Made by a program: the position numbers and the translations under genes
Assembly (NCBI RefSeq): GCF_045037415.1
Contig: NZ_CP173440.1
Origin: Escherichia coli
GTDB taxonomy: Bacteria > Pseudomonadota > Gammaproteobacteria > Enterobacterales > Enterobacteriaceae
Reading direction: 5' to 3' (one strand)
Length of the DNA: 64,000 nucleotides
Notes under the pieces: generated by a model
Told to the model about the DNA's origin: nothing
Database searches by the model: none
The model's input: only the letters and a program-made list of their open reading frames with translations
Shown: one piece after another, positions 10,445 through 39,122 of the stretch
How the letters are laid out: each line of letters starts with the position of its first letter
Position numbering within the stretch: position 1 is the first letter of the stretch

Positions 10445-11264
10445 GGCACTGTTGCAAAGTTAGCGATGAGGCAGCCTTTTGTCTTATTCAAAGGCCTTAC
10501 ATTTCAAAAACTCTGCTTACCAGGCGCATTTCGCCCAGGGGATCACCATAATAAAATGCTGAGGCCTGGCCTTTGCGTAGTGCACGCATCACCTCAATAC
10601 CTTTGATGGTGGCGTAAGCCGTCTTCATGGATTTAAATCCCAGCGTGGCGCCGATTATCCGTTTCAGTTTGCCATGATCGCATTCAATCACGTTGTTCCG
10701 GTACTTAATCTGTCGGTGTTCAACGTCAGACGGGCACCGGCCTTCGCGTTTGAGCAGAGCAAGCGCGCGACCATAGGCGGGCGCTTTATCCGTGTTGATG
10801 AATCGCGGGATCTGCCACTTCTTCACGTTGTTGAGGATTTTACCCAGAAACCGGTATGCAGCTTTGCTGTTACGACGGGAGGAGAGATAAAAATCGACAG
10901 TGCGGCCCCGGCTGTCGACGGCCCGGTACAGATACGCCCAGCGGCCATTGACCTTCACGTAGGTTTCATCCATGTGCCACGGGCAAAGATCGGAAGGGTT
11001 ACGCCAGTACCAGCGCAGCCGTTTTTCCATTTCAGGCGCATAACGCTGAACCCAGCGGTAAATCGTGGAGTGATCGACATTCACTCCGCGTTCAGCCAGC
11101 ATCTCCTGCAGCTCACGGTAACTGATGCCGTATTTGCAGTACCAGCGTACGGCCCACAGAATGATGTCACGCTGAAAATGCCGGCCTTTGAATGGGTTCA
11201 TGTGCAGCTCCATCAGCAAAAGGGGATGATAAGTTTATCACCACCGACTATTTGCAACAGTGCC
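10445..11264 (-). mobile_element. IS26 copy 1 (820 bp, 14-bp IRs GGCACTGTTGCAAA)
   Basis: IRs at both ends; Tnp26 ORF inside. Confidence 0.95.
10497..11219 (-). CDS. tnp26: IS26 transposase Tnp26 (ORF-track frame; native 234-aa start is 6 codons downstream)
   Basis: [41 protein letters not shown]... Confidence 0.95.
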   Translation of the reverse strand: MLMELHMNPFKGRHFQRDIILWAVRWYCKYGISYRELQEMLAERGVNVDHSTIYRWVQRYAPEMEKRLRWYWRNPSDLCPWHMDETYVKVNGRWAYLYRAVDSRGRTVDFYLSSRRNSKAAYRFLGKILNNVKKWQIPRFINTDKAPAYGRALALLKREGRCPSDVEHRQIKYRNNVIECDHGKLKRIIGATLGFKSMKTAYATIKGIEVMRALRKGQASAFYYGDPLGEMRLVSRVFEM

Positions 11265-11330
11265 GATAAAAATATATCATCATGAACAATAAAACTGTCT
11301 GCTTACATAAACAGTAATACAAGGGGTGTT

Positions 11331-12146
11331 ATGAGCCATATTCAACGGGAAACGTCTTGCTCGAGGCCGCGATTAAATTCCAACATGGATGCTGATTTAT
11401 ATGGGTATAAATGGGCTCGCGATAATGTCGGGCAATCAGGTGCGACAATCTATCGATTGTATGGGAAGCCCGATGCGCCAGAGTTGTTTCTGAAACATGG
11501 CAAAGGTAGCGTTGCCAATGATGTTACAGATGAGATGGTCAGACTAAACTGGCTGACGGAATTTATGCCTCTTCCGACCATCAAGCATTTTATCCGTACT
11601 CCTGATGATGCATGGTTACTCACCACTGCGATCCCCGGGAAAACAGCATTCCAGGTATTAGAAGAATATCCTGATTCAGGTGAAAATATTGTTGATGCGC
11701 TGGCAGTGTTCCTGCGCCGGTTGCATTCGATTCCTGTTTGTAATTGTCCTTTTAACAGTGATCGCGTATTTCGTCTCGCTCAGGCGCAATCACGAATGAA
11801 TAACGGTTTGGTTGATGCGAGTGATTTTGATGACGAGCGTAATGGCTGGCCTGTTGAACAAGTCTGGAAAGAAATGCATAAGCTTTTGCCATTCTCACCG
11901 GATTCAGTCGTCACTCATGGTGATTTCTCACTTGATAACCTTATTTTTGACGAGGGGAAATTAATAGGTTGTATTGATGTTGGACGAGTCGGAATCGCAG
12001 ACCGATACCAGGATCTTGCCATCCTATGGAACTGCCTCGGTGAGTTTTCTCCTTCATTACAGAAACGGCTTTTTCAAAAATATGGTATTGATAATCCTGA
12101 TATGAATAAATTGCAGTTTCATTTGATGCTCGATGAGTTTTTCTAA
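11331..12146 (+). CDS. aph(3')-Ia: Aminoglycoside 3'-phosphotransferase APH(3')-Ia (kanamycin/neomycin resistance)
   Basis: 271-aa product MSHIQRETSCSRPRLNSNMDADLYGYKWARDNVGQSGATIYRLYGKPDAPELFLKHG... Confidence 0.95.
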   Translation: MSHIQRETSCSRPRLNSNMDADLYGYKWARDNVGQSGATIYRLYGKPDAPELFLKHGKGSVANDVTDEMVRLNWLTEFMPLPTIKHFIRTPDDAWLLTTAIPGKTAFQVLEEYPDSGENIVDALAVFLRRLHSIPVCNCPFNSDRVFRLAQAQSRMNNGLVDASDFDDERNGWPVEQVWKEMHKLLPFSPDSVVTHGDFSLDNLIFDEGKLIGCIDVGRVGIADRYQDLAILWNCLGEFSPSLQKRLFQKYGIDNPDMNKLQFHLMLDEFF

Positions 12147-12283
12147 TCAGAATTGGTTAATTGGTTGTAACACTGGCAGAGCATTACGCTGACTTGACGG
12201 GACGGCGCTTCCCTACCCTCATGGCCGCCTCCCAGGAATCGACCCAGGTGCTTATCGTGGACATAATCCTTTACTCATAAATT

Positions 12284-13103
12284 GGCACTGTTGCAAAGTT
12301 AGCGATGAGGCAGCCTTTTGTCTTATTCAAAGGCCTTACATTTCAAAAACTCTGCTTACCAGGCGCATTTCGCCCAGGGGATCACCATAATAAAATGCTG
12401 AGGCCTGGCCTTTGCGTAGTGCACGCATCACCTCAATACCTTTGATGGTGGCGTAAGCCGTCTTCATGGATTTAAATCCCAGCGTGGCGCCGATTATCCG
12501 TTTCAGTTTGCCATGATCGCATTCAATCACGTTGTTCCGGTACTTAATCTGTCGGTGTTCAACGTCAGACGGGCACCGGCCTTCGCGTTTGAGCAGAGCA
12601 AGCGCGCGACCATAGGCGGGCGCTTTATCCGTGTTGATGAATCGCGGGATCTGCCACTTCTTCACGTTGTTGAGGATTTTACCCAGAAACCGGTATGCAG
12701 CTTTGCTGTTACGACGGGAGGAGAGATAAAAATCGACAGTGCGGCCCCGGCTGTCGACGGCCCGGTACAGATACGCCCAGCGGCCATTGACCTTCACGTA
12801 GGTTTCATCCATGTGCCACGGGCAAAGATCGGAAGGGTTACGCCAGTACCAGCGCAGCCGTTTTTCCATTTCAGGCGCATAACGCTGAACCCAGCGGTAA
12901 ATCGTGGAGTGATCGACATTCACTCCGCGTTCAGCCAGCATCTCCTGCAGCTCACGGTAACTGATGCCGTATTTGCAGTACCAGCGTACGGCCCACAGAA
13001 TGATGTCACGCTGAAAATGCCGGCCTTTGAATGGGTTCATGTGCAGCTCCATCAGCAAAAGGGGATGATAAGTTTATCACCACCGACTATTTGCAACAGT
13101 GCC
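12284..13103 (-). mobile_element. IS26 copy 2
   Basis: 820 bp with IRs; identical to copy 1. Confidence 0.95.
12336..13058 (-). CDS. tnp26: IS26 transposase Tnp26
   Basis: Identical 240-aa ORF-track product. Confidence 0.95.
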   Translation of the reverse strand: MLMELHMNPFKGRHFQRDIILWAVRWYCKYGISYRELQEMLAERGVNVDHSTIYRWVQRYAPEMEKRLRWYWRNPSDLCPWHMDETYVKVNGRWAYLYRAVDSRGRTVDFYLSSRRNSKAAYRFLGKILNNVKKWQIPRFINTDKAPAYGRALALLKREGRCPSDVEHRQIKYRNNVIECDHGKLKRIIGATLGFKSMKTAYATIKGIEVMRALRKGQASAFYYGDPLGEMRLVSRVFEM

Positions 13104-13433
13104 ATGCCGGTGAGCGCCCTGATCTGCTTCTGCACCTGTCCCGACGCCGACAGCGCCGAGCGCATCGCCACCGCGCTGGTGGCCGAGCGCCTGGCCGCCT
13201 GCGTCAACCTCCTGCCCGGCCTGCGTTCGGTCTATCGCTGGCAACGCAAGGTCGAGGCCGCGGCCGAGGTCCTGCTGCTGGTCAAGACCAGTGCCGAGGC
13301 CTACCCCGCCCTGCAGGAACGCCTGCGCCAACTGCATCCCTACGAACTCCCGGAGCTGCTCGCGGTCGAAGCCGCGTCCGGCCTGCCCGAATACCTGCAA
13401 TGGCTGGCCGCCGAGAGCCGACCGGTAAACTGA
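13104..13433 (+). CDS. cutA: Divalent-cation tolerance protein CutA, ATG directly abutting the IS26 end
   Basis: MPVSALICFCTCPDADSAERIATALVAERLAACVNLLPGLRSVYRWQRKVEAAAEVLLLVKT...HPYELPELL has the CutA signature; high GC. Confidence 0.85.
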   Translation: MPVSALICFCTCPDADSAERIATALVAERLAACVNLLPGLRSVYRWQRKVEAAAEVLLLVKTSAEAYPALQERLRQLHPYELPELLAVEAASGLPEYLQWLAAESRPVN

Positions 13434-13437
13434 GCCA

Positions 13438-14469
13438 ATGACCGCATCCACGATCCGCCTGCGCCGCTGGCTGGCCGGGCTCGCCCTGCTGCTTGCGCTG
13501 CCCGCGACCTCGGCCGTCGCCCAGGACTTCGAACTGCCGCCGGTCGACGAGGTCTTCGTCCTGTCCGCGCAGGCCACCGCGCCGGACCGCATCGAGGTGC
13601 GCTGGCGGATCGCCGACGGCTATTACCTGTACCGGCACCGCACCTCGGTCAAGGCCGATGCCGCCTTCACCGGCGCGACCATGGCGCTGCCGAAGGGCAA
13701 GGCCTACCGCGACGAATTCTTCGGCGACGTCGAAACCTACCGCAAGGAATTGCTCGGCACCCTCACCGGCACGCCCGCGGCCGGCGCGAGCGCGACCACC
13801 CTGACCGTGAAGTACCAGGGCTGCGCCGATGCCGGCGTGTGCTACCCGCCGCAGACCCGCACCCTGAAGGTCGCGTTGCCGGGCGAAGCGGGCGCTGGCG
13901 GCTTCGGCTGTAAGGCGCGCGGGCTGCATGATTATGTCGTCAAGAACGGCTCTGCCGATCATCCCAACGCCGAGGTGAAATTCGCACTGGGTGATGTGGT
14001 CAACACCATGATCGGCTGCACTAATGGTGAAACGATCATGCTGTGCCACGACACCTCGCTGCCGCGCCCCTATTCTCTCGGCTTTCGGGTGCAAGGCACC
14101 GAGGGGCTGTGGATGGACGTCAACAAGTCGATCTATCTGGAGGGCAAGAGCCCACAGCCGCACCGCTGGGAGCCTGCCGAGGGCTGGTTTGCGAAATACG
14201 ATCACCCGCTATGGAAACGCTACGCCGATCTGGCGGCAGGGGCCGGGCATGGCGGGATGGACTGGTTCGTGATCCACGCTTTTGTCGAGGCGCTGAAGGC
14301 CAAGGCCCCGATGCCAATCGACATTTACGACGCGCTGGCCTGGAGCGCGATCACGCCTCTGTCGGAACAATCGATTGCTGAGGGCAATCGCACGTTAGAT
14401 TTTCCCGACTTCACCCGAGGGCAGTGGCGCACCCGCAAGCCGATCTTTGCGCTGAACGACGCCTATTGA
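13438..14469 (+). CDS. dsbD: Fusion ORF: DsbD N-terminal domain joined in frame to the C-terminal part of a Gfo/Idh/MocA-like oxidoreductase (the 'tat'/'dsbC' ORF of blaNDM contexts)
   Basis: N-terminal half has DGYYLYR and TVKYQGCADAGVCYPP (nDsbD motifs); C-terminal half is unrelated to the DsbD membrane and thioredoxin domains; GC content drops near 13900. Confidence 0.65.
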   Translation: MTASTIRLRRWLAGLALLLALPATSAVAQDFELPPVDEVFVLSAQATAPDRIEVRWRIADGYYLYRHRTSVKADAAFTGATMALPKGKAYRDEFFGDVETYRKELLGTLTGTPAAGASATTLTVKYQGCADAGVCYPPQTRTLKVALPGEAGAGGFGCKARGLHDYVVKNGSADHPNAEVKFALGDVVNTMIGCTNGETIMLCHDTSLPRPYSLGFRVQGTEGLWMDVNKSIYLEGKSPQPHRWEPAEGWFAKYDHPLWKRYADLAAGAGHGGMDWFVIHAFVEALKAKAPMPIDIYDALAWSAITPLSEQSIAEGNRTLDFPDFTRGQWRTRKPIFALNDAY

Positions 14470-14479
14470 TCGACGCGAT

Positions 14480-15118
14480 TTAGGCCAAGCGCACCGCAAA
14501 GGCGAAATTGGTAATCTTGTCGGTATCCTTGACGCCCGGCGCGCTTTCGACGCCGCTGGAGGTATCGACCAGCGGCGCTCCGGTGCGCGCAATCGCCTCG
14601 GCAACATTCGTCGGATTTAGCCCGCCTGCCAGCCCCCACGGCAAGGCACCGCGATATCCGGCCAGCAGCGACCAGTCGAACGCCAACCCCATGCCGCCGG
14701 GCAGCGCGCCTTTGGGGGTCTTGGCGTCGAACAAGATCAAGTCCGCCGCCCCGGCATAGGCTGCGGCGCGTGCGACATCGCTGGCGCTGGCGACGGGCAG
14801 CGCCTTCCACACCGGCTTGCCAAACCGCGCGCGCAACTGGGCCACGCGTTCGGGCGATTCCGAACCGTGCAGCTGCAGCGCGTTCAGCTTGGCTGCCACC
14901 AGTGCGTCGGCGATGACAGCATCATCCGCATCGACGAACAAACCGACCATGGCGATCTGGCCAGCTGCGCGCGATGTCAAAGCGCCCGCGACATTCGACG
15001 TAACCGCACGGGGCGACGCTGGATAGAACACCAACCCGGCATAGTCCGCCCGCGCCGCGATGGTCGCATCGAGCGCCTCGGGTGTGCTGATCCCGCAAAT
15101 CTTGATTTTCGCGGGCAT
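14480..15118 (-). CDS. trpF: Phosphoribosylanthranilate isomerase TrpF
   Basis: 212-aa product MPAKIKICGISTPEALDATIAARADYAGLVFYPASPRAV... Confidence 0.9.
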   Translation of the reverse strand: MPAKIKICGISTPEALDATIAARADYAGLVFYPASPRAVTSNVAGALTSRAAGQIAMVGLFVDADDAVIADALVAAKLNALQLHGSESPERVAQLRARFGKPVWKALPVASASDVARAAAYAGAADLILFDAKTPKGALPGGMGLAFDWSLLAGYRGALPWGLAGGLNPTNVAEAIARTGAPLVDTSSGVESAPGVKDTDKITNFAFAVRLA

Positions 15119-15122
15119 GCGG

Positions 15123-15488
15123 TCAGTCGGGGTTCTGGATCAGCCGCACCAGCGTGCAGTCGGGATCGATCAGGTAGCCGATCCTCAGGCCGCTCGCCTC
15201 CAGTTGCGGAGCTTTGAAGCGCGGCCAGCCGGTGCTTTTTTCCTCGGCTCCCGCCGCGTTCACCAATGCCACCATGGCATCGAGATCATCCAACCGCAGG
15301 CAACAGCCGAACGAGCTCGTAGCTGGGTCGAGGTCAGGATAGGGGAAGAATTCGAGCTGCAAACCGCCGCGCTGCAGGATCATCCAGCCGCGATCCTTCC
15401 AACTCGTCGCAAAGCCCAGCTTCGCATAAAACGCCTCTGTCACATCGAAATCGCGCGATGGCAGATTGGGGGTGACGTGGTCAGCCAT
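15123..15488 (-). CDS. ble: Bleomycin-binding resistance protein BleMBL
   Basis: 121-aa glyoxalase/bleomycin-resistance fold protein immediately downstream of blaNDM. Confidence 0.9.
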   Translation of the reverse strand: MADHVTPNLPSRDFDVTEAFYAKLGFATSWKDRGWMILQRGGLQLEFFPYPDLDPATSSFGCCLRLDDLDAMVALVNAAGAEEKSTGWPRFKAPQLEASGLRIGYLIDPDCTLVRLIQNPD

Positions 15489-15491
15489 GGC

Positions 15492-16304
15492 TCAGCGCAG
15501 CTTGTCGGCCATGCGGGCCGTATGAGTGATTGCGGCGCGGCTATCGGGGGCGGAATGGCTCATCACGATCATGCTGGCCTTGGGGAACGCCGCACCAAAC
15601 GCGCGCGCTGACGCGGCGTAGTGCTCAGTGTCGGCATCACCGAGATTGCCGAGCGACTTGGCCTTGCTGTCCTTGATCAGGCAGCCACCAAAAGCGATGT
15701 CGGTGCCGTCGATCCCAACGGTGATATTGTCACTGGTGTGGCCGGGGCCGGGGTAAAATACCTTGAGCGGGCCAAAGTTGGGCGCGGTTGCTGGTTCGAC
15801 CCAGCCATTGGCGGCGAAAGTCAGGCTGTGTTGCGCCGCAACCATCCCCTCTTGCGGGGCAAGCTGGTTCGACAACGCATTGGCATAAGTCGCAATCCCC
15901 GCCGCATGCAGCGCGTCCATACCGCCCATCTTGTCCTGATGCGCGTGAGTCACCACCGCCAGCGCGACCGGCAGGTTGATCTCCTGCTTGATCCAGTTGA
16001 GGATCTGGGCGGTCTGGTCATCGGTCCAGGCGGTATCGACCACCAGCACGCGGCCGCCATCCCTGACGATCAAACCGTTGGAAGCGACTGCCCCGAAACC
16101 CGGCATGTCGAGATAGGAAGTGTGCTGCCAGACATTCGGTGCGAGCTGGCGGAAAACCAGATCGCCAAACCGTTGGTCGCCAGTTTCCATTTGCTGGCCA
16201 ATCGTCGGGCGGATTTCACCGGGCATGCACCCGCTCAGCATCAATGCAGCGGCTAATGCGGTGCTCAGCTTCGCGACCGGGTGCATAATATTGGGCAATT
16301 CCAT
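15492..16304 (-). CDS. blaNDM-1: New Delhi metallo-beta-lactamase NDM-1 (carbapenemase)
   Basis: [64 protein letters not shown]...MADKLR; diagnostic residues P28, V88, D95, D130, E152, M154, A233 are the NDM-1 states. The ORF-track entry carries one extra Met. Confidence 0.97.
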
Positions 16305-16379
16305 CAAGTTTTCCTTTTATTCAGCATTAAAAACCCCGCAAATGCGAGGCCTAGTAAATAGATGATCTTAATTTGGTTC

Positions 16380-16408
16380 ACTGTAGCAAAAATATGGGGC
16401 GAATTCAA
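16380..16408 (-). promoter_or_regulatory. blaNDM promoter: -35 TTGAAT (16403-16408) in the ISAba125 end, 17-bp spacer, -10 TACAGT (16380-16385)
   Basis: Hexamers read on the minus strand ~76-104 bp upstream of the blaNDM start. Confidence 0.65.
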
Positions 16409-16494
16409 ACATGAGGTGCGACAGTTTCAAAAGCCATATGATAATCAACAAGCTGAGCAAATTTCTCTAATGGTGTAAGCCAATCTAACGCCTT

Positions 16495-17630
16495 TCTAAA
16501 TAACTGATCCTAATACCGCTACACTTTAGCCAGCCCGTGTTTTCCACCGGGGAATGGGCTGACGGTATCCATAAAGTGATGAACCTTTTTCAACAGATGC
16601 CACATTGAACGGCACTGGTGATTTCGGGTTATTGTCTCATGAAGCGCCTGCCACAACCGTTCGACATGATTGACCCATGGCGAGTAAACCGGCTGATAAA
16701 TGACCCTGAACTTCTGGTTTGCTTTCAGCCAGCGCAACGTTTCACGACTTTTGTGGATAATGTAGTTATCGACAATGAGCGTAATCGTTTTTGCCCGCCG
16801 GTATGTCGCCTTAAGATGTTTTAACAGTCTGATAAATAAACATGAACCTTTACTGTTTCCACCTACGTAGCTGACTTTTCCCGTACCGCTGTGCAGCGCA
16901 CCGGCAAGATAGTACTTTTCATTCTGGCCCGGTGTGACAACACGTTTTTGCTGCCCGCGTAACTGCCAGTCAGCACCGATTTTCGGGTTGAGATGAATAT
17001 CCACTTCATCTTCGTAAAACACGGGATTTTCCGCACTGCATTTCGCCAGTGCTTCATGGATAGCAACCATTTTTTCTTCTTTGTGTGGGTCACGGATACG
17101 CAGTGTCGGCGCTGCTCTGCGCCATACCAGCCCGGCTGCAGGTAACCATCTCCGGATGGTTGAGGCATGTAGCGGACAACCGGTGACATCACGGATTTTT
17201 ATCGCCAGCAGTTCGGTACTCCAGCGGGAACGCTGATAACCGAAATCGCCGGGAGAATGCTTCACAAGCTCACGCAGCAATGCGCAAATATGTTCGAACG
17301 GCCAGCGCCTGCCACGTCCTGACGGTAATGACTTCAGGCCTTCAGCACCAGACAGAGTGAACCAGTTAATCCAGCGACCAATCGATGAGCGTGCACAGCA
17401 GAGTGTTCTGGCCACATGACTGACGCGCTCGCCCCGGTGCAACATCAGCATGGCGGTCAGTCTGCGGGCATAATTTTTATCGCGTGTTTTATGGATAGCT
17501 TTCTGCATCAGGCGTCGTTCGTCACGAGGTATTGGTGCTATGATCGACATCGCTCAGTCCGTTTGGTGATTTGTTTTGATTTGGCGATTGATCAGATCGC
17601 ACAATTCGGGCTGAGTTCCCTCAAAGTGAT
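16495..17630 (-). mobile_element. IS630-family element (ISEc33/IS630-like) inserted in ISAba125; ends approximate
   Basis: Contains a complete 343-aa IS630-type transposase; ISAba125 sequence resumes on both sides. Confidence 0.45.
16519..17550 (-). CDS. IS630-family transposase
   Basis: 343-aa product MSIIAPIPRDERRLMQKAIHKTRDKNYARRLTAMLMLHRGERVSHVARTL... Confidence 0.85.
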   Translation of the reverse strand: MSIIAPIPRDERRLMQKAIHKTRDKNYARRLTAMLMLHRGERVSHVARTLCCARSSIGRWINWFTLSGAEGLKSLPSGRGRRWPFEHICALLRELVKHSPGDFGYQRSRWSTELLAIKIRDVTGCPLHASTIRRWLPAAGLVWRRAAPTLRIRDPHKEEKMVAIHEALAKCSAENPVFYEDEVDIHLNPKIGADWQLRGQQKRVVTPGQNEKYYLAGALHSGTGKVSYVGGNSKGSCLFIRLLKHLKATYRRAKTITLIVDNYIIHKSRETLRWLKANQKFRVIYQPVYSPWVNHVERLWQALHETITRNHQCRSMWHLLKKVHHFMDTVSPFPGGKHGLAKV

Positions 17631-17646
17631 CTACTATTCTGCACAG

Positions 17647-18585
17647 CTATTTAGGACGAGTATTCAGTGACATGGCAACTTGATTTAAATAATGCTGATC
17701 TGCCTGATTTAAATCAATCCCTTTAGGTAAATATTGCCTAATTAAACCATTCATATTTTCGCATGTGCCTTTTTGCCAGGGTGAATGTGGGTCACAGAAA
17801 TATACATCTATGCCTAAATCTTCTTCGAGTATTTTATGTTCTGACATCTCACGTCCACGGTCATAGGTCAACGTTTTACGCAGTTCTGCAGGTAAATATT
17901 TCAGAGCTTCAGTTAAAGCCTTGCGCACTGATTCTGCCTTTGCATCAGGTAATGTTGCCAAGATACAGAGCCGTGTATTTCGTTCAATAAGTGTTGCTAT
18001 CGAACTTTTATTGTCTTTACCTTTAATTAAATCAGCTTCCCAATGACCCGGTATTTTTCTTTCTTGAACTTCGGCTGGGCGCTCATGAATAGTTTTAATA
18101 TCCTGTAATATAGAATCTTTTTTAGGTTCACCGTTAGCTTTTCGCTTTTTATTTTCATGACGTAGACAGGATAATAAGTCTTTTTTCAACTCACCCTTTG
18201 GTAATGCTCGTATCGTTGAATAAATCGTTGTATGGCTTACATTCATTGTTTGATCCAAATCAGGAAATGTCTTTAAACGCTTTGCTATTTGCTGAGGAGA
18301 CCATAAACAACGGATCGCTTCAACAATAAATTTCCAGAGGATTGAATCGATTTTGAGTTTTCTGTGACCACGTCTACGTCTAGCGAAGGTGTTATCAGAA
18401 GCATATCGAGCTTGATAAACGTCATTGATGCTATTTCTTTTAAGCTCACGATAGATCGTACTAGGATGTCTTTTAATGAGTTCAGCAAATTTTCTGGCTG
18501 AAAAGCCTTCTTTTCTTGACTCAAGCATTAATGCAGTACGATCTTCAAAGTTAAGATGATGGTATGACAATTTTATATACTCCAT
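17647..18585 (-). CDS. ISAba125 (IS30-family) transposase
   Basis: 312-aa product MEYIKLSYHHLNFEDRTALMLESRKEGFSARKFAELIKRHPSTIYREL... Confidence 0.85.
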   Translation of the reverse strand: MEYIKLSYHHLNFEDRTALMLESRKEGFSARKFAELIKRHPSTIYRELKRNSINDVYQARYASDNTFARRRRGHRKLKIDSILWKFIVEAIRCLWSPQQIAKRLKTFPDLDQTMNVSHTTIYSTIRALPKGELKKDLLSCLRHENKKRKANGEPKKDSILQDIKTIHERPAEVQERKIPGHWEADLIKGKDNKSSIATLIERNTRLCILATLPDAKAESVRKALTEALKYLPAELRKTLTYDRGREMSEHKILEEDLGIDVYFCDPHSPWQKGTCENMNGLIRQYLPKGIDLNQADQHYLNQVAMSLNTRPK

Positions 18586-18736
18586 AAACCCTTTAAATTA
18601 ATTAGGTGGTTTATGTCGCACTTCAAGTTTTACTCTGCCAACTTTAAATCAGTGGCTCCACTAACACTCTTCACTTATTTATTTAAAATTTAGCGACGTT
18701 AAAAGACAATTAAGTATTTTTAGATAATGCTTAGAA

Positions 18737-19516
18737 TCAATTCAATTCATCAAGTTTTAAAAAATAATTCCTTTTGTCAGGTCTATCATTTTTTAAATGC
18801 TTTAAAAATATTTTAGCAGTTTCCTCCGAGGCATCCTCTCTTAGGCAACGTTCAACAAAGGATATATCTACAAATTCATCAGCTAACCCAGCACGGCCAA
18901 GATCTAAAAAGTAAATTTCATTGAATTTATCTATAAAAATATTACTATCCGTGATATCGCCATGAGAAAAAACCAATCTTTCTTCAACACGAGTCTCAGT
19001 TAACTCATTCCATAGACTTAGGTAAGTTCTATGGTCTCCCCATAATTCAGCGTCAAAATCATCTTGATCTATATCGTCAAGGAGTTGGTTATCAATAAAA
19101 AATTTTGACTCTTTTAACCGATGATCAATGTTTGAAATAAATGGACAATCAATAATAGCAACTGAATTTAACAGATTGAGTGCCTCCTTATAGATAGCAA
19201 GCAATTCTTGGTCTGTTAAAAAAAGCGCTGAAATTGGTTTTGCATTGATCGCTTTAGTGATCATTAATTCAAACTGCTCATCCTGAAAAGTCATGATGAG
19301 TTCAGGCACCTTTAATTTCTCAGAGAGCCAACTCAACATTTTCGCTTCGCGAGAGACACTGTATGTGGTCTCTGTATATAAAGTGCTAGATCGCTTAAGA
19401 AAAAAAGTTTCATTATTTCGATTAAAAGAATAAACATCCGATGGCGACTGACCAATTTTATTTGGCTCTAAAACGCTGTTTCCAATAAATTGTTGAATAA
19501 TATTGGGCAATTCCAT
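18737..19516 (-). CDS. aph(3')-VI: Aminoglycoside 3'-phosphotransferase APH(3')-VI (amikacin/kanamycin resistance, aphA6)
   Basis: MELPNIIQQFIGNSVLEPNKIGQSPSDVYSFNRNNETFFLKRSSTLY...; shares its first six codons with blaNDM-1. Confidence 0.93.
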   Translation of the reverse strand: MELPNIIQQFIGNSVLEPNKIGQSPSDVYSFNRNNETFFLKRSSTLYTETTYSVSREAKMLSWLSEKLKVPELIMTFQDEQFELMITKAINAKPISALFLTDQELLAIYKEALNLLNSVAIIDCPFISNIDHRLKESKFFIDNQLLDDIDQDDFDAELWGDHRTYLSLWNELTETRVEERLVFSHGDITDSNIFIDKFNEIYFLDLGRAGLADEFVDISFVERCLREDASEETAKIFLKHLKNDRPDKRNYFLKLDELN

Positions 19517-19621
19517 CAAGTTTTCCTTTTATTCAGCATTAAAAACCCCGCAAATGCGAGAGAGGTGGTCCCACTTGTTTGAACAACTAAAAGCGTATTT
19601 ATAAGTGATATTCCGCTCTAG

Positions 19622-19864
19622 TTAAGCCACCTTGTTTTGTTGGGGTAGCTGATCATAGTAAAACTCATTTGGTGTCATTTTGTCTAGACTCGAATGAGGT
19701 CGTTTCAAATTATAAAACTCAAAATATGCACTTAATTGCTTTTTCGCATCTGTGACACTGCTATAAGCTTTGAGATACACCTCTTCATATTTAGGAGAGC
19801 ATGAAAAACCTCGGGGCAGCCATCGAATGATGCCATCTACAGGGGTTAAAATAACCACCATCAT
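19622..19864 (-). pseudogene. C-terminal fragment of an IS3-family transposase (ISAba14-like remnant)
   Basis: 80-aa ORF ending ...YFEFYNLKRPHSSLDKMTPNEFYYDQL, typical of an IS3 OrfB C-terminus; family assignment from context. Confidence 0.5.
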
Positions 19865-19886
19865 TTCATAACAATACCTGCTGACT

Positions 19887-20477
19887 ATGAAGATCTACGT
19901 CATCAAAATAGCAGTTCATGGAGTCAGTCCGATGGTCTGGCGTCGGCTGAGAATTGCTGCCGACACGTCACTGGCCGCGCTTCACTTCATTTTCCAGATA
20001 GTGCAGGGCTGGGGGGACGACCATCTCCATCAATTTCACATTTATGGCAAAGATTACGGTATCTCCTACGAAGGAGGCATCGGTTTTGTCGATAATCCGT
20101 TCCGGGTCGTGATTGATGATTTTGCTTTTGATGCTGGCGATCGCTTTACCTATGAATACAATTTCTTTGAGCACTGGCTTCATGACATTCGTGTTGAGGC
20201 CATTTATGAAAACTCTACGCTGAAAGCGCCGTTTTGTATAAGCGGCCATGGTATGCCCGGAGCCACAGCTGCGGATGAGTTCGATAAAACCCTGGCGTTT
20301 CTTGAAGCTATCGTTAATGCGGATGATGAAACAACGGTCGGCGAGATCCGCCCTTTTGCTGACGACCTGGATGCTGTCAGGTTCAACCGCCACAAAATCA
20401 ACCGGCAACTGAGCAGGCTCGACCTTGCATCTCCGGTACTGGAGCCTGAAGTTATCTGGCTGGGCCGTCGTCGCTGA
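19887..20477 (+). CDS. Hypothetical protein (pRiA4b ORF-3-like family), first ORF of the ISKpn19-like element
   Basis: 196-aa product MKIYVIKIAVHGVSPMVWRRLRIAADTSLAALHFIFQIVQGW... Confidence 0.45.
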   Translation: MKIYVIKIAVHGVSPMVWRRLRIAADTSLAALHFIFQIVQGWGDDHLHQFHIYGKDYGISYEGGIGFVDNPFRVVIDDFAFDAGDRFTYEYNFFEHWLHDIRVEAIYENSTLKAPFCISGHGMPGATAADEFDKTLAFLEAIVNADDETTVGEIRPFADDLDAVRFNRHKINRQLSRLDLASPVLEPEVIWLGRRR

Positions 20478-20613
20478 CTGATGTCTATAAAGGTATACGT
20501 TTTCAGCATGCCTCTCAGATCCCCGAAAAAATGTCTATAAACCTCCCTAAATCAGTGTTTATGGATTATTCTTTAAATCTCTATGATGTTTAAAGACCTT
20601 CCGGAGGTTTTGC

Positions 20614-21186
20614 GTGCAATATGCCTACATCAGGGTAAGCTCGGCCGATCAGAATACGGCCCGTCAGGAAGAGGCATTGTCAAAGGCGGGTTTTCAGCCT
20701 GATAAAATTTGTGTTGAGCATGCCAGCGCGAAGGACACAAACCGCCCGGGGTTACAGGAACTCCTGGGGCAATTACGCCCTGGTGATACGCTTCTGGTTC
20801 ATTCCATCGATCGCCTTTGCCGGAATATGTCGGATATGTGCGCTGTCACCACCCGGCTTCGTGACCAGGGCGTTACCCTTATTTTTCTGAAAGAGCAGCT
20901 GACGTTCAGCGCCGGCACAAACAATCCGATGCAGGAACTGCAGCTGCACATGATGTCGGCATTCAGCCAGTTTGAACGAGCCTTACTGAAGGAAAGGCAG
21001 GCCGACGGCATCGCCGCGAAAAAAGCACGGGGTGAAAAAACAGGGCGCCCCGGCGCCGATATCAAAAAGATCCAGGAAATTGACGCACTCAGAAGCAGAG
21101 GGGTCAGGCTCAGGATCGCCTGCGACCATGCGGGCCTTGGCGTTTCCACATATTATAAGCTTCGTCACCAGATGAACAACCAGTAG
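20614..21186 (+). CDS. Small serine recombinase (resolvase/invertase family) encoded inside the ISKpn19-like element
   Basis: N-terminal YIRVSSADQ serine-recombinase motif and C-terminal HTH. Confidence 0.6.
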   Translation: MQYAYIRVSSADQNTARQEEALSKAGFQPDKICVEHASAKDTNRPGLQELLGQLRPGDTLLVHSIDRLCRNMSDMCAVTTRLRDQGVTLIFLKEQLTFSAGTNNPMQELQLHMMSAFSQFERALLKERQADGIAAKKARGEKTGRPGADIKKIQEIDALRSRGVRLRIACDHAGLGVSTYYKLRHQMNNQ

Positions 21187-21219
21187 CCGGGAGATAGTCA
21201 TCCACCACAGCAGGAGGCA

Positions 21220-22614
21220 ATGATGCAACTGACGCTCCAGATAGTCATCACCGATGAATCAGGCTCCAGTCGAACGGAGGAACTGATGACAATCCAGAAA
21301 TCAGGGGAAACCCGGAACGACATCGGATTATCGGTGTCAGAATCCAAGCTGTTGCTGAATACGGTCCAGCAGTCGGTGGTCCAGCTGCAGGCAGACGAAT
21401 ATACTCAACACCATATCCGGTGCCCTCACTGCCTTGCTGCGCGCAGAATCAAAGGCAAACAGAAAATACGGTACCGGACGCTGTTTGGCGTTATTCCGGT
21501 ATCCGGGCTTCGGGTGTACCGGTGCCGTTGTGAAGAGAGTGATACAAAGACAGTCAGTTTGCTCAGCGACTGGGCCGGCGATTATTCTCACCCGGCACTG
21601 AAATATATTGAAACCCGCTGGGCCTCGATGATCTCCTATGAAATGACGACTCGTCTGCTGAAAGATATTCTGCCGGTGGGCCACAGCCTGAATGCCTCAA
21701 CGGTGAGGAATCATTTATGCCAGGTGGCGCAGCGTCTTGACGCTGAGGCTGAAGCTCATTCAGGTTTTCTTTCCGGCTGCCCCCGCGACTGGGGGAACCT
21801 GCCCAGGCCAGGAAAACCGCTTGTGGTGGGTATAGATGGTGGTTATGTTCGCGATCGGGATGACAAAAAGCGTAATTTTGAAATTATTGCCGGGAAGTCT
21901 TTTTCCGTTGGTGCGCCTGCTGACACCCGCCGCTTCGGTTTTGTTCAGAAGGATGACTGTCATCCGGAACGCAGGCTCATGACCCACCTTTCAGCGCAGG
22001 GAATGCAGGCCAACCAGCAGATATTTTTTCTGTCCGACGGCGCGGATAATCTCAGGGACCTCCAGTTCGGTATGTACCCTGAGTCAACGCATGTGCTGGA
22101 CTGGTTTCATATCACCATGAGGCTGAAGGTGCTCATGCAATATGCCCGGGGACTGCTGGTATCAGATCCAGAGGCGGGGAGTAAAGTTCTGGCACTGCTG
22201 GAAAGCATTAAACGATATCTCTGGCATGGCAATGTTGTCGCTGCGCTGGAACATATTGATAATTGCGTTATGTATTGCGATGACCCTGAACTCAGCTATC
22301 CTAGCCTGAAATCCCTGCAAAAACATCTGGATGAAATGTATACCTACATCCGGAATAATAAGATGATGATCCCAAACTACGGCGAAATGCGTCGGTACGG
22401 AGAGCCGGTATCAACCGCGTTTGTGGAATCCACGATCAATGAAGTGATCGCCAGACGAATGGCCAAAAAGCAGCAGATGCAGTGGAGCAGAAAAGGGGCT
22501 CATTATTTGTTACAGACCCGGACCGCCGTTTTGAATAACGAACTGCAGGATAAATTTGTCTGCTGGTATCCGGGTTTTCAAAGTGACGGGAAGGGACCAG
22601 CGATGGCAGCATAG
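21220..22614 (+). CDS. ISKra4-family transposase (ISKpn19-like)
   Basis: 464-aa product; assignment from recalled family features and the ISKpn19-tnpR fragment-qnrS1 context. Confidence 0.7.
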   Translation: MMQLTLQIVITDESGSSRTEELMTIQKSGETRNDIGLSVSESKLLLNTVQQSVVQLQADEYTQHHIRCPHCLAARRIKGKQKIRYRTLFGVIPVSGLRVYRCRCEESDTKTVSLLSDWAGDYSHPALKYIETRWASMISYEMTTRLLKDILPVGHSLNASTVRNHLCQVAQRLDAEAEAHSGFLSGCPRDWGNLPRPGKPLVVGIDGGYVRDRDDKKRNFEIIAGKSFSVGAPADTRRFGFVQKDDCHPERRLMTHLSAQGMQANQQIFFLSDGADNLRDLQFGMYPESTHVLDWFHITMRLKVLMQYARGLLVSDPEAGSKVLALLESIKRYLWHGNVVAALEHIDNCVMYCDDPELSYPSLKSLQKHLDEMYTYIRNNKMMIPNYGEMRRYGEPVSTAFVESTINEVIARRMAKKQQMQWSRKGAHYLLQTRTAVLNNELQDKFVCWYPGFQSDGKGPAMAA

Positions 22615-22616
22615 CT

Positions 22617-23075
22617 CACGCTGCCCCAATATTTTTTATGCTCTCGGTCGTATGGAAGCTGGACCGCCTCGGTCGTGATCTTCGTCATCTCATTAATACA
22701 GTGCACGACCTGACCGCGAGGGGGACCGGTCTGAAAGTGCTGACCGGTCACGGGGCGACTATCGACACAACAACGGCCGCTGGCAAGCTTGTCTTCGGTA
22801 TCTTTGCCGCACTGGCGGAGTTTGAGCGCGAACTGATTGCTGAAAGAACGACTGCAGGTCTGGCATCAGCAAGAGCCCGTGGGCGGAACGGCGGCCGACC
22901 TTATAAAATGACGCCAGTCAAACTGCGACTGGCAATGGCATCAATGGGACAATCAGAAACAAAGGTCAGTACGCTATGCCAGGAACTTGGGATAACCCGG
23001 CAAACTTTGTACAGGCATATTTCCCCTGTTGGTCAACTGCGGGCGGACGGGATCAAGCTGCTCAACCGTGGATAA
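22617..23075 (+). pseudogene. tnpR: Tn3-family resolvase TnpR, 5'-truncated (lacks the catalytic Ser region)
   Basis: Product starts at ...KLDRLGRDLRHLINTVHDL, about residue 60 of resolvases. Confidence 0.7.
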
Positions 23076-23393
23076 TTTGAACGGACGGAAAAATCTGGGG
23101 TTCCGGCGTAGTACCCCTATCACCTCCACATTTTTGCAACAGTGCCTTATAAATGGCAGCCTTATGTTTACTTGCCAAGATGGGCTACCATATGATGTTT
23201 TATACTGAGCAATATTAATATTATCTTTAATGGAAAAATTAAGCCCACTAAGTGACCCACTGCTATATGGCTCTATTGTGAAGACGCCTGAGGGTAAAAA
23301 TTTATACATGGTTGTCCCTATGTCTATTATTGCAAGGTTGACAATATTATTCGTTTTATAAATTTGAGCGTTTAAAATCACACATCAAAGCAA

Positions 23394-24050
23394 TTAGTCA
23401 GGATAAACAACAATACCCAGTGCTTCGAGAATCAGTTCTTGCTGCCAGGCTGCAATTTTGATACCTGATGTATCGACTTTGCGGGGATCTAAACCGTCGA
23501 GTTCGGCGTGGCATAAATTGGCACCCTGTAGGCTAAATTGCCCCCAGACATCTTCGGAAAAAACACCTCGACTTAAGTCTGACTCTTTCAGTGATGCACC
23601 CGCTAGGTTCGTTCCTATCCAGCGATTTTCAAACAACTCACATTTTTCTAAACAAACCCTCTCCATATTGGCATAGGAAAGATTACATCCAGAAATAAAT
23701 GCTGAGCAAAAGTACATACGATTACTCACTTGATGGGCAAAGTTTGTTCGGGAAAAGTTGGCACCTTTTAAATCACACGCACGGAACTCTATACCGTAGC
23801 AATTGGCATTACTGAAGTTTGCCATCGCAAGTTGGCATTGTTGGAAACTTGCATCACGAAGATCTGCGACATCAAAGTGGCAGCCTTCGATATCACCCTG
23901 TTCAATGAACTTGCAGTTGACGAATGTCGTATCACGCAAGTTAGCACGTCGAAAGTCGCTGCGAATGAATGTGCAAGCGGTGAAGGTGAGATCACTTAAG
24001 TCTTTATGTGAAAAGTTGTGGTGCCGATATGTATGATTGTAGGTTTCCAT
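23394..24050 (-). CDS. qnrS1: Quinolone-resistance pentapeptide-repeat protein QnrS1
   Basis: 218-aa product METYNHTYRHHNFSHKDLSDLTFTACTFIRSDFRRANLRDTTFVNCKF... Confidence 0.95.
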   Translation of the reverse strand: METYNHTYRHHNFSHKDLSDLTFTACTFIRSDFRRANLRDTTFVNCKFIEQGDIEGCHFDVADLRDASFQQCQLAMANFSNANCYGIEFRACDLKGANFSRTNFAHQVSNRMYFCSAFISGCNLSYANMERVCLEKCELFENRWIGTNLAGASLKESDLSRGVFSEDVWGQFSLQGANLCHAELDGLDPRKVDTSGIKIAAWQQELILEALGIVVYPD

Positions 24051-24417
24051 GAGTACTCCTTGTTGAAAGGAGGGCTAGACTACCATTATACATATGCCAA
24101 GACATTAAAATAAAAGCCTGTTACATCAACACATTACAACCCCTCAATTTACCTGTTTTAAGTGGTCAAATTGGCGCGTAGAGCGCCTATCGCTCTTGCA
24201 TTGGCACGCGGCCCTGTTGAAAAAAGTTATTCGCTTTAGATAGGGTTAGGAGAGCCGTGCTTCGCCGGTAAAAAATCGGACTATCCGACGCAGGGCGGAC
24301 TCATCGGCGGAGAAGCAAACTTTGACTATATCTCCCTACACTTGGAAGAGGGCTAGACTGGCCCCATAGATCACCAGACACTTCGACTCTCTTAAAATAA
24401 GAGGTAGTCTTGGAACT

Positions 24418-24813
24418 ATGTTTAATACCAGTCAGAACGATAAGATGGTTGAAGTGTTATCAGGACCTGAGCGGCGTCGGCGTCGTACACCGCAGGAAAA
24501 AATTGCCATTATTCAGCAGACTATGGAGCCCGGTATGACCGTGTCTCATGTCGCGCGCCTGCATGGCATCAATGCAAACCAGATATTCAAATGGCGCAAG
24601 CAATATTAAGACGGTTCACTGACGGCTGTTGCATCGGGCGAGGAAGTGGTGCCGGCCTCCGAACTCGCTGCCGCCAATAAGCAAATTCGCGAACTCCAGC
24701 GCCTTCTGGGCAAAAAGACGATGGAAGCCGAGATACTCAAAGAGGCCGTGGAGTTCGGCCGGGCAAAAAAATGGATTGCGCATGCGCCCTCGTTGCCTGG
24801 GAACGACGAATAA
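24418..24813 (+). pseudogene. orfA of an IS2-group (IS3-family) element with an in-frame TAA at 24607-24609
   Basis: Frame reads ...QIFKWRKQY[64 protein letters not shown], colinear with IS2 OrfA. Confidence 0.6.
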
Positions 24814-25469
24814 GCGACGTTTGCAGAAGTCTTGGCGTGTCGCGTGCGCAGTTGAGCATTCGGGTTCACCGGCCATCTGACTGACAGGATCGCAGACGGC
24901 AGCCCCGTTCTGACGATACCACCGTATTGTCCCGGATAAACATGGCGGTGGCTGACCTGCCGACGTATGGTTATCGCCGTGTGTGGGCGCTGCTGCGACG
25001 GGAGTCGGAGCGGGACGGCCTGCCTGTGGTTAATGCAAAGCGGGTGTATCGCATTATGAGAACGCATAATCTGCTTCTTGAACGTAAACCCGCTGATCCT
25101 TGCCGTAAGCGGGCCCATAAGGGGCGCGTAGCAGTAGCGGAAAGTAACCGGCGCTGGTGCTCAGATGGCTTTGAGTTCCGCTGTGATAATGGCGAAAAGC
25201 TGCGGGTGACCTTCGCGCAGGACTGCTGCGACAGGGAGATCATTGACTGGGCAGCGAGCACCGGAGGCTATGACAAAGAAACGGTGCAGGATGTCATGCT
25301 GGGTGCGGTGGAAAAACGCTTCGGAAGGCAGTTGCCAACAGTGCCGGCGTTCGCCCGGTTGCTGGGACTGGAGCCTTGTACGACAGCAGTGCGAAGCCCG
25401 GAAAGCAATGGCATAGCAGAAAGCTTCGTGATGACGATAAAACGGGACTACATCAGCATCAGGATTTTA
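24800..25469 (+). pseudogene. orfB of the IS2-group element, internally deleted and 3'-truncated where the Tn3 IR begins
   Basis: ORF-track product 24927-25478 matches IS2 InsD in blocks ([36 protein letters not shown]) with a gap and a premature end. Confidence 0.55.
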
Positions 25470-25507
25470 GGGGTCTGACGCTCAGTGGAACGAAAACTCA
25501 CGTTAAG
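25470..25507. repeat. Tn3-type 38-bp terminal inverted repeat (GGGGTCTGACGCTCAGTGGAACGAAAACTCACGTTAAG)
   Basis: Read directly; overlaps the tnpA stop as in Tn3/Tn2. Confidence 0.85.
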
Positions 25508-27709
25508 CAACGTTTTCTGCCTCTGACGCCTCTTTTAATGGTCTCAGATGTCCTTTGGTCACCAGTTCTGCCAGCGTGAAGGAATAATGGCCGAGCATAT
25601 TGATATGTCCGTGGCAAAGCGGGGAGAGGCGTGCGATATCTTCATCATTCAGTGTTTCACCCTGCGCCCGGAGATGATCCAGGGCTGCCTGCATATAAAT
25701 AGTGTTCCATAACACGACGGCGTTAGTGACCAGCCCCAGTGTGCCCAGTTGATCTTCCTGACCGTCGGTATATCGTTTTCTTATCTCACCTTTTTGACCG
25801 TGACAGATGGCTCTGGCAACGGCATGGCGACTTTCTCCCCGATTAAGCTGGGTCAGAATGCGCCGGCGGTAATCTTCATCATCAATATAATTAAGCAGAT
25901 ACAGCGTTTTGTTGATGCGCCCCACTTCAATGATTGCCTGAGTCAGTCCGGAAGGACGTTCACTTTTCAGCAATGAACGGACCAGCACTGAAACCTGTAC
26001 TTTGCCCAGCTTCAGGGAGCCAGCGGTCCGGATCATTTCGTCCCACTGAAGGACTATTTTTCGGGGATCTGATTGCCCTCTGGCAATATCATTCAGCACG
26101 CCATAGTCGGCATCATGGTCCATTCGCCAGAAAACCGAAGCACCGGCATCAGCCAGGCGTGGAGAAAACTGGTATCCCAGCAGCCAGAAAAGGCCAAAGA
26201 CAAGTTCGCTGGCACCTGCTGTATCGGTCATAATTTCGGTTGGATTCAGCCCGGTTCCTGTTCCAGAAGACCTTCCAGCACAAAGATAGAGTCCCTCAGC
26301 GTCCCCGGTATAACGATGCCATGAAAGCCGGAATACTGATCGGACACAAAGTTGTACCAGGTGATCCCTCTGTTATTACCAAAGTATTTGCGGTTCGGTC
26401 CGGCATTGATTGTTCTGACTGGCGTAACAAAGCGCATTCCATCTGCAGATGCCACTTCTCCTCCACCCCATATCTGTGCCAGTGGCAGCGTTGCCTGAAA
26501 ATCAACCAGTCTGGCATTAGCGCTGGTGATAGTTTCAGCCCGCAGATAGTTCGCTTTTGTCCAGTTCAGCCGGTGTCGGGTCAGTGCAGGAACATTTGAT
26601 CTGATCAGTGGTTCCAGACCGATATTGCAGGCTTCAGCCATCAGCACGGCGCTGATGCTGACGGGCAGATCATCAACTCTGGCACTGGCTTCACTAGCAT
26701 GGAAAAACTCATCAGCAAATCCGGTATGGGCGTTAATTTCGAGCAGCAACTCCGTTAAATCCACCGGAGGGAGTAGATCACTGATCATTTTGCTCAGTCG
26801 TTTCAGACTGTCCGGCTCATCAAGACTGGCGAGGGGAGAAATTGTCAACCGGGGCTTCGGGCCAGAAACATCGAGTTCGACAGCCTCATTTTCGCAAAGA
26901 CGTGCAGCAACCTGTCTGTAACGACTATCAAGCTGATGACCCAGAGATTTTATTGCTTCCTGCGGGTCTGTCGGGTGCCCCAAAGAACGATAAACCTTAA
27001 TCCGGTTTGCCTGCCAGTCAGCACCCTGTAGTAATCTTGCACGAGGATCTCCCCACCGGTTACTGCCGGTAACGTAGACATCCCTCCGCCTCAGACTATC
27101 CTGCAGTTTACTGAGAAAGCAGAGCGTGTATCCCCTGCGGGTGATATGTTTTTCCTTGTTAATCACCAGCCGTTTCCATGACCGACTGATAATTTCCGTT
27201 GGTGCGTCGTCAAAAAACTGCCGCCGTGAGCTGAACTCCCGGCTGAGGTAGTCACAGGCATTCAGAGTGGTAACCCCGGCAGGTGCGGATGAAAATTTAA
27301 CGGTATTCAGCAGATGGGGCAGGAAACGACGAACGCGCCCGTACTGCTCCACCATTTCTTCATGAAAATTATCGTCTGAGGGCCGGGCAATTTCACGGAC
27401 AAGCGTGATGATTTCAGCCAGCTTTTGCCTTGGGATGTAGCTGAACACCTCAGCACGAATCGATTCGTCCGGTGTTTCTTCTTTCAGCAGGTACGAACAT
27501 GCGCTGGCGAGCGCCAATGCAGATTTATCCAGATCCTTCAGCGAGCGGAGCCGTTTTTTCTGCCCAATCTTTCTGGCGTCACGGATGATAACGGCCAGCA
27601 TGGCGTCCAGAACGTCCAATGCATCATCCAGCGCCAGCGTTTCCCATGCAAGGACAAAGGCAACCAGAACCGCCATCCTTTTCTGCGGTGACATCCTGGC
27701 AATATTGAA
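25503..27709 (-). pseudogene. tnpA: Tn3/Tn2-type transposase tnpA, 5'-truncated by IS26 (first ~280 codons missing) with a frameshift near 26231-26246
   Basis: ORF-track products 26246-27694 and 25503-26231 are colinear with TnpA but in different frames; the reading frame runs up to the IS26 boundary. Confidence 0.85.
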
Positions 27710-28529
27710 GGCACTGTTGCAAAGTTAGCGATGAGGCAGCCTTTTGTCTTATTCAAAGGCCTTACATTTCAAAAACTCTGCTTACCAGGCGCATTTCGCC
27801 CAGGGGATCACCATAATAAAATGCTGAGGCCTGGCCTTTGCGTAGTGCACGCATCACCTCAATACCTTTGATGGTGGCGTAAGCCGTCTTCATGGATTTA
27901 AATCCCAGCGTGGCGTTGATTATCCGTTTCAGTTTGCCATGATCGCATTCAATCACGTTGTTCCGGTACTTAATCTGTCGGTGTTCAACGTCAGACGGGC
28001 ACCGGCCTTCGCGTTTGAGCAGAGCAAGCGCGCGACCATAGGCGGGCGCTTTATCCGTGTTGATGAATCGCGGGATCTGCCACTTCTTCACGTTGTTGAG
28101 GATTTTACCCAGAAACCGGTATGCAGCTTTGCTGTTACGACGGGAGGAGAGATAAAAATCGACAGTGCGGCCCCGGCTGTCGACGGCCAGGTACAGATAC
28201 GCCCAGCGGCCATTGACCTTCACGTAGGTTTCATCCATGTGCCACGGGCAAAGATCGGAAGGGTTACGCCAGTACCAGCGCAGCCGTTTTTCCATTTCAG
28301 GCGCATAACGCTGAACCCAGCGGTAAATCGTGGAGTGATCGACATTCACTCCGCGTTCAGCCAGCATCTCCTGCAGCTCACGGTAACTGATGCCGTATTT
28401 GCAGTACCAGCGTACGGCCCACAGAATGATGTCACGCTGAAAATGCCGGCCTTTGAATGGGTTCATGTGCAGCTCCATCAGCAAAAGGGGATGATAAGTT
28501 TATCACCACCGACTATTTGCAACAGTGCC
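27710..28529 (-). mobile_element. IS26 copy 3, variant encoding Tnp26 with G184N and R93L
   Basis: 820 bp with IRs; nucleotide differences from the other copies are cag vs ccg at ~28189 and tt vs cc at ~27916-27917. Confidence 0.95.
27762..28484 (-). CDS. tnp26: IS26-variant transposase (G184N, R93L in the 234-aa numbering)
   Basis: Product has AYLYLAVDS and KRIINATLGF where the other four copies have AYLYRAVDS and [10 protein letters not shown]. Confidence 0.9.
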   Translation of the reverse strand: MLMELHMNPFKGRHFQRDIILWAVRWYCKYGISYRELQEMLAERGVNVDHSTIYRWVQRYAPEMEKRLRWYWRNPSDLCPWHMDETYVKVNGRWAYLYLAVDSRGRTVDFYLSSRRNSKAAYRFLGKILNNVKKWQIPRFINTDKAPAYGRALALLKREGRCPSDVEHRQIKYRNNVIECDHGKLKRIINATLGFKSMKTAYATIKGIEVMRALRKGQASAFYYGDPLGEMRLVSRVFEM

Positions 28530-29284: not shown

Positions 29285-29350
29285 CATTGTTAATTGAAAT
29301 TGTTAAGTTAACAGTCAGGTATTAACACAAGTTGAAAACTGGTTTACATA

Positions 29351-29893: not shown

Positions 29894-30251
29894 CCAAGAC
29901 TCCAGTTTTTTGAAGAGCCAATTTCAGTGCAAGCACTTGAAATAATGACTCCTCAAAAAACCGGATGATGTTTATTAAAACTGAATAAAACCGTGGAACA
30001 TCGCTCAATTAGTGATCGTGGAACATGAATAATCAATAAAAAGCCGTTCTGGTGCCCTATACTCCAGAACGGCTTACGTTAATATAATGATATTTAAAGA
30101 GAAATATCAAGCATTTCGTATAAGAAATTTTATGTTAAATGATTGTTAGAAATGCCCCTTGATCGAGGCATTTTCTATAAAGAATACTAAAAACTAATTA
30201 AAGCCAACCAAGTTTCAAAACAAGGCAGTTCTCAGCAATCATATTTTTAAA

Positions 30252-31136: not shown

Positions 31137-31191
31137 TTTTAATTTCCTTTAAAGAGTTCAATAATTAATGTTCGGATTAGATTGGCTATCA

Positions 31192-39036: not shown

Positions 39037-39122
39037 CTGCACATTCGGGATATTTCTCTATATTCGCGGTTCAGCAGGCATGTCCCCTTTGAGGGCGACC
39101 CGACGACAGGATAATCGACCTT

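Follow-up and report, generated by a model that had tools for sequence, protein, structure and literature searches.

The 5' ends of blaNDM-1 and of the nearby aph(3')-VI (aphA6) gene carry an identical 64-bp segment in the 64,000-nt stretch of DNA analysed here (hereafter, "the window"). We consider it very probable that this repeat is a passive historical scar and not a functional element, left by the four-step history proposed below. Direct string comparison of positions 16285–16348 with positions 19497–19560 showed identity over exactly 64 bp, with mismatches flanking both ends. The two copies are in direct orientation and lie 3,212 bp apart, measured start to start; a repeat search of the window returned a 67-nt direct repeat with one mismatch at the same start-to-start distance of 3,212 bp. 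Both genes are on the minus strand, and the repeat, read in gene orientation, consists of 44 nt of leader followed by ATGGAATTGCCCAATATTAT, the 20 nt of coding sequence that specify M-E-L-P-N-I plus 2 nt of the next codon. The first base past the repeat is G in blaNDM-1 and T in aph(3')-VI, the following CA is common to both genes, and the sequences diverge thereafter. By chance, only ~6e-30 exact repeat pairs of this length are expected in 64 kb. These measurements agree with the initial annotation, which had described 64 bp of identity made up of 20 nt of coding sequence and 44 bp upstream, followed by divergence, with about 3.2 kb between directly oriented copies. It had also named an identity shorter than the first six codons as the result that would undo its reading; the alignment covers at least those six codons. 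A chimeric start of blaNDM-1 is defined by first six codons, about 19–20 nt, that are the same as those of aphA6, and what we found is 20 identical nt and then a mismatch.

The features around the two copies are listed in Table 1. Gene identities were taken from the deposited annotation of 100%-identical records, in which WP_014386410.1 is an APH(3')-VI family protein. The aph(3')-VI of the window is the pNDM-BJ01-type allele, with 98.46% identity to APH(3')-VIa (RGI).

Table 1. Features at and between the two copies of the 64-bp repeat (window coordinates)
Feature	Position	Strand	Basis or remark
blaNDM-1 CDS	15492..16304	-	ORF; NDM-1 WP_004201164.1 annotated in 100%-identical records
Repeat copy at blaNDM-1	16285..16348	-	CDS nt 16285-16304 plus aphA6-type leader 16305-16348; identical to the TnaphA6 leader
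Remainder of aphA6-type leader before blaNDM-1, 49 bp	16349..16397	-	contains -10 TACAGT; absent upstream of the linked aph(3')-VI
ISAba125, 1,087 bp once the insertion is removed	16398..18639	-	in two pieces, 16398-16498 and 17652-18639
ISSpu2-like IS630-family element, 1,153 bp	16499..17651	-	in the 3' end of ISAba125; transposase ORF 16519-17550
aph(3')-VI 3' flank, 97 bp	18640..18736	-	stop codon to ISAba125 IRL, the Tn125 insertion point
aph(3')-VI (aphA6) CDS	18737..19516	-	ORF; WP_014386410.1, same protein in A. baumannii pNDM-0285
Repeat copy at aph(3')-VI	19497..19560	-	CDS nt 19497-19516 plus leader 19517-19560
ISAba14 (IS3 family) 3' remnant, 233 bp	19561..19793	-	adjoins the aph(3')-VI leader at -44

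The 3,148 bp between the copies hold the 49 bp of additional leader, ISAba125 (1,087 bp), the ISSpu2-like element (1,153 bp), the 97-bp flank and a 760-bp aph(3')-VI body. The IRR of ISAba125 ends at 16398, 93 bp from the blaNDM-1 ATG, and its IRL starts at 18639; the two inverted repeats match at 20 of 26 positions, and a GTT triplet (18640–18642) flanks the IRL. The ISSpu2-like element is bordered by a TA duplication (16497–16498 and 17652–17653). Its insertion deprives the ISAba125 transposase gene of some 30 codons at the 3' end (ORF 17647–18585, compared with a 322-aa CDS in pNDM-0285), and this copy of ISAba125 is, as judged from its reading frame, probably unable to make its own full-length transposase. 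We assigned the ISAba14 remnant from its annotation in a 100%-identical record; pNDM-0285 has a complete ISAba14, and identity to that plasmid stops at 19793.

An intact Tn125 has two intact ISAba125 copies bracketing the segment from blaNDM-1 to ISCR27, and the window does not contain one. The ISSpu2-like element splits the upstream ISAba125 and leaves a truncated transposase gene. Downstream of blaNDM-1, an IS26 copy (12284–13103), joined at cutA, stands in place of groES, groEL, ISCR27 and the second ISAba125. This IS26 truncation has taken away the right-hand end of Tn125, and the window shows the GTT at the IRL side only. A 343-aa ORF with a signal-peptide-like N-terminus lies on the plus strand between cutA and trpF (13438–14469). 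The PLSDB gene tables of related plasmids list no CDS for this ORF, which the original records may treat as a pseudogene or a fused remnant.

To establish why the identity ends where it does, we aligned five leaders, including those of blaNDM-1 in the window and in pNDM-0285, the TnaphA6 of pACICU2, and the linked aphA6. The blaNDM-1 leader of both the window and pNDM-0285 is the same as the pACICU2 TnaphA6 leader from codon 7 through the 44 nt of the repeat, through a further 49 nt and on into ISAba125. By contrast, the leader of the linked aphA6 departs from the others at -44, precisely at the start of ISAba14. The identity is limited to 64 bp because ISAba14 adjoins the linked aphA6 at this position, and the limits of the repeat are those of two separate events, the fusion point of the chimera on the downstream side and the ISAba14 boundary in the aphA6 copy on the upstream side. 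We also queried plasmid records with a synthetic junction composed of the aphA6 body, the 64 bp, the spacer and the ISAba125 end; this TnaphA6-type junction is contiguous in 188 plasmid records, most of them from Acinetobacter.

The base composition gives the direction of transfer, which is from aphA6 to the start of blaNDM-1: the GC content is 35.9% in the repeat, 36.2% in the spacer and 33.7% in the aphA6 body, and 62.3% in the NDM body. The claim of the initial annotation that the segment is the chimeric 5' end of blaNDM-1 is borne out by this composition, which is like that of the aphA6 body and not that of the NDM body, and by earlier publication of both the fusion and the exact 64-bp repeat. 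Composition and leader alignment together support the reading of the repeat as an aphA6-derived chimeric 5' end. Yoon et al. (PMC4212838) described a native aphA6 leader of 93 bp and a hybrid promoter, PaphA6, that arose from a -35 supplied by ISAba125 and that is the same as PNDM-1; that paper, citing Toleman et al. (2012), has this promoter and the first 19 bp of aphA6 fused to blaNDM-1. The same aphA6/blaNDM-1 chimera is summarised by Acman et al. (PMC8894482). Support for the fusion step consists of secondary citations of the chimera work, together with the composition and alignment evidence. The "donor-type" label that the initial annotation had given to the linked aph(3')-VI is imprecise: this gene has ISAba14 at -44 and is without the further 49 bp of leader, the ISAba125 end and, with them, the hybrid promoter region, and so is not of the intact donor type.

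The predicted hybrid promoter of blaNDM-1 has its hexamers at the published position, with -35 TTGAAT (16403–16408) inside the ISAba125 IRR, a 17-nt spacer, and -10 TACAGT (16380–16385) outside the repeat. Scanning the ISAba14 remnant for promoters gave no consensus-like candidate for aph(3')-VI. Of the two promoters published for this gene, Pnative lies at -104 to -75 and PaphA6 is the ISAba125 hybrid; the truncation at -44 separates aph(3')-VI from both.

We considered, and dropped, a regulatory (RNA) reading of the shared leader. A hairpin, GGCCUCGC-AUUU-GCGGGGUU, followed by a U-run, can be drawn at the 5' edge of the shared leader (16331–16352 and 19546–19561, minus strand); it falls within the 5' UTR of both genes, and the ISAba14 boundary lies in the base of its stem. 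The leader folds no better than shuffled sequence (z = -0.59 and +0.83), and a terminator scan gave fewer sites than in shuffles. An Rfam scan of positions 16000–20000 placed no credible RNA family in the shared leader, the lone match being a sub-threshold snoRNA inside aphA6 (E = 0.56).

The first step of the history that we propose, an in-frame fusion, is established in the literature and agrees with the sequence of the window: a metallo-beta-lactamase gene of high GC content acquired, at its 5' end, the first ~20 nt of aphA6, preceded by the 93-bp leader of that gene, by PaphA6 and by ISAba125. Tn125 carrying blaNDM-1 would then have entered a pNDM-BJ01-like plasmid of Acinetobacter at a point 97 bp downstream of a separate unit, ISAba14-aphA6, a step suggested by the literature and by the GTT flank, and would have left two aphA6-type 5' ends in direct orientation. 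The present sequence shows that, with ISAba14 at -44 in the linked aphA6, the stretch in common with blaNDM-1 comprises 44 nt of leader and 20 nt of coding sequence. It shows, too, that this block passed unchanged into Klebsiella pneumoniae plasmids, and that the ISSpu2-like element then inserted into ISAba125, so that the two copies of the repeat came to lie 3,212 bp apart where they had been 2,057 bp apart, while IS26 truncated the downstream end. According to the literature, the adjacency of blaNDM-1 and aph(3')-VI is secondary and came about when Tn125 inserted downstream of aphA6: Ji et al. (PMC5155454) ascribed it to such an insertion with GTT duplication, and the same account is given in PMC4396501.

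Comparison with known plasmids is consistent with this history. Over positions 15097–19793, the 1,153-bp ISSpu2-like insertion is the sole difference from A. baumannii pNDM-0285. Whereas pNDM-0285 has a complete ISAba14, aphA6, an intact ISAba125 and blaNDM-1, the window has an ISAba14 remnant and an interrupted ISAba125. The arrangement in the window is that of the pNDM-BJ01 type, with ISAba14 directly upstream of aphA6 and ISAba125-blaNDM-1 downstream in the same orientation. At least 87 plasmid records, from several genera, contain the 8-kb core of this region with 100% identity, and the window matches ~340–350-kb Klebsiella pneumoniae plasmids of IncFIB/IncHI1B type.

The closest published description is that of pNDM-44551 from Acinetobacter pittii (PMC5155454, Sci Rep 2015), in which a 64-bp repeat (20 + 44 bp) was reported as a consequence of the aphA6/blaNDM-1 chimera. 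The composition of the repeat, the order ISAba14-aphA6-ISAba125-blaNDM-1 and the reading as a by-product of the chimera are all common to pNDM-44551 and the window. The window differs in having a K. pneumoniae IncFIB/IncHI1B-type host plasmid, in the ISSpu2-like element within ISAba125, which makes the spacing 3,212 bp as opposed to about 2,057 bp, in the reduction of ISAba14 to 233 bp, and in its aphA6 allele, which is of the pNDM-BJ01 type and not of the pNDM-44551 type. Similarly, the window has the six codons, the leader, the predicted ISAba125 hybrid promoter and the sharp GC break of the chimera as described in PMC4212838 and PMC8894482; relative to that description, its only extra is a second, promoter-less aphA6 5' end in cis. 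The leader of TnaphA6 (ISAba125-aphA6-ISAba125) is the same as the blaNDM-1 leader of the window over the ISAba125 end, the 93 bp and the 20 nt. The aph(3')-VI of the window, however, falls outside TnaphA6, with ISAba14 at -44 replacing the upstream ISAba125 and a different allele that has 3 mismatches in the 483-nt synthetic query. Lastly, the hybrid plasmids of K. pneumoniae ST147 (phvKpST147_NDM; PMC8226487) have ISAba125-ISSpu2-ISAba125 before blaNDM, IS26 downstream, and aphA6 with an ISAba14 remnant. The IS26 truncation at cutA is common to these plasmids and the window, which are 100% identical across 8 kb. A difference lies to the left of the IS26 at 12284, where the relative that we compared has a dfrA5 class 1 integron in place of the IS26-aph(3')-Ia-IS26 of the window.

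The initial annotation had presented the repeat as a substrate for homologous deletion of the intervening ISAba125. Perfect 64-bp direct repeats are a formally valid substrate, and that part of the claim stands; ISAba125 alone, however, is not what would go. Lost with it would be the second insertion sequence and the body of aph(3')-VI, a gene that would thereby be destroyed, and blaNDM-1 would be cut off from its promoter, whose -35 and -10 hexamers also lie in the 3,148 bp between the copies. We constructed the junction that such a deletion would leave, consisting of the ISAba14 remnant, the 64 bp and blaNDM-1, and searched for it in plasmid records and E. coli genomes. Among 72,556 plasmid records, 264 have the parental ISAba14-64 bp-aphA6 junction and none has that of the deletion, which is likewise missing from all of 5,426 complete E. 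coli genomes. The search of sequenced relatives that the initial annotation had suggested turned up no deletion in either collection. The reciprocal, duplication-type junction with the aphA6 allele of the window has no match at 100% among the plasmid records, the best matches being to TnaphA6 at 99.4%. An exact pattern of the ISAba14 end plus the 64 bp, which catches both parental and deleted forms, had 0 matches in species-representative genomes and metagenomes; these collections are uninformative because the parental junction is absent from them too.

These results bear directly on the idea that the repeat is the relevant recombination site, with homologous or replication-slippage deletion recurrently removing the 3.2 kb. 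Perfect direct repeats of 64 bp are long enough in principle, since RecA-independent deletion occurs in E. coli between 46-bp perfect repeats 886 bp apart, with rates that rise with repeat length and fall with distance (PMC5426353). Recurrent deletion is nonetheless very unlikely, given the missing deletion and duplication junctions and a product that would have lost both a resistance gene and a promoter. Moreover, far longer direct repeats are close by in the form of four 820-bp IS26 copies, and the one documented deletion in the region ran between two ISAba14 copies (PMC8754128). We infer that deletions across these 64 bp are rare if they occur at all and that exposure to carbapenem or amikacin would select against them, which fits the absence of the deletion junction from the databases. 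An absence from assembled plasmids is also compatible with rare events within populations. We rate it as very unlikely that, within populations, the repeat now and then gives rise to a deletion or, by unequal exchange, to the reciprocal tandem duplication. If it did, blaNDM-1 in the deletion subpopulations, which would be without aph(3')-VI, would be expressed not from PNDM-1 but from the leader on the ISAba14 side, and duplication subpopulations would have amplified aph(3')-VI. Such deletions and duplications would be a source of heteroresistance invisible to consensus assemblies. The armA gene makes aph(3')-VI redundant for amikacin resistance in the plasmid, which would weaken selection keeping aph(3')-VI.

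The proximity of the two genes, their common orientation and their perfectly matching 5' ends might also suggest that the original fusion took place at this very locus and that the linked aph(3')-VI was the copy that donated the 5' end. We regard this as highly improbable. The 49 bp of additional aphA6 leader and the ISAba125 in front of blaNDM-1 are missing from the linked copy, which has ISAba14 at -44, and the GTT at the ISAba125 IRL is the published target-site triplet of Tn125, indicating transposition downstream of aphA6. Furthermore, blaNDM-1 with the same leader and with no linked aphA6 is found in thousands of records. As for an assembly artefact or a chance match, we found no point in support of either, and both are excluded: the chance expectation is the one given above, and sequencing done independently has yielded the identical 8-kb structure for no fewer than 87 complete plasmids, which come from several genera, and it is present in Acinetobacter pNDM-0285 as well.

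Elsewhere in the window, IS26 is present in five copies, four in direct orientation (10445–11264, 12284–13103, 27710–28529 and 42843–43662) and one inverted (about 35953–36772); two positions set the copy at 27710 apart from the others. The segment with blaNDM-1, aph(3')-VI and qnrS1 (13104–27709) lies between directly oriented IS26 copies, and the IS26-aph(3')-Ia-IS26 segment at 10445–13103 has a Tn4352-like layout. The rest of the resistance island (28600–43700) contains mph(E), msr(E), armA and sul2 with ISEc29 and ISVsa3, according to the annotation of a related plasmid. A tandem array at 52400–53516 consists of 26.6 copies of a 42-bp unit with 87% matches, directly downstream of a gene that the related plasmid's annotation assigns to a RepB-family replication initiator, and it looks like an iteron array. 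A CDS annotated as "hypothetical protein" in the related plasmid spans this array and may be spurious.

The 64-bp repeat is an ordinary feature whose origin and genetic context, like the repeat itself, are already in the literature, and its value as a discovery is small. If rare deletions across it occurred, amikacin resistance would be lost and the carbapenemase gene would be taken off its promoter at once, an outcome of which current sequence collections hold no sign. The two gene starts can be confused by short-read assemblers and k-mer tools. The practical use of the finding lies in annotation: in this module, which is widespread in Klebsiella and Acinetobacter, the linked aph(3')-VI has just a truncated 5' end in common with blaNDM-1.
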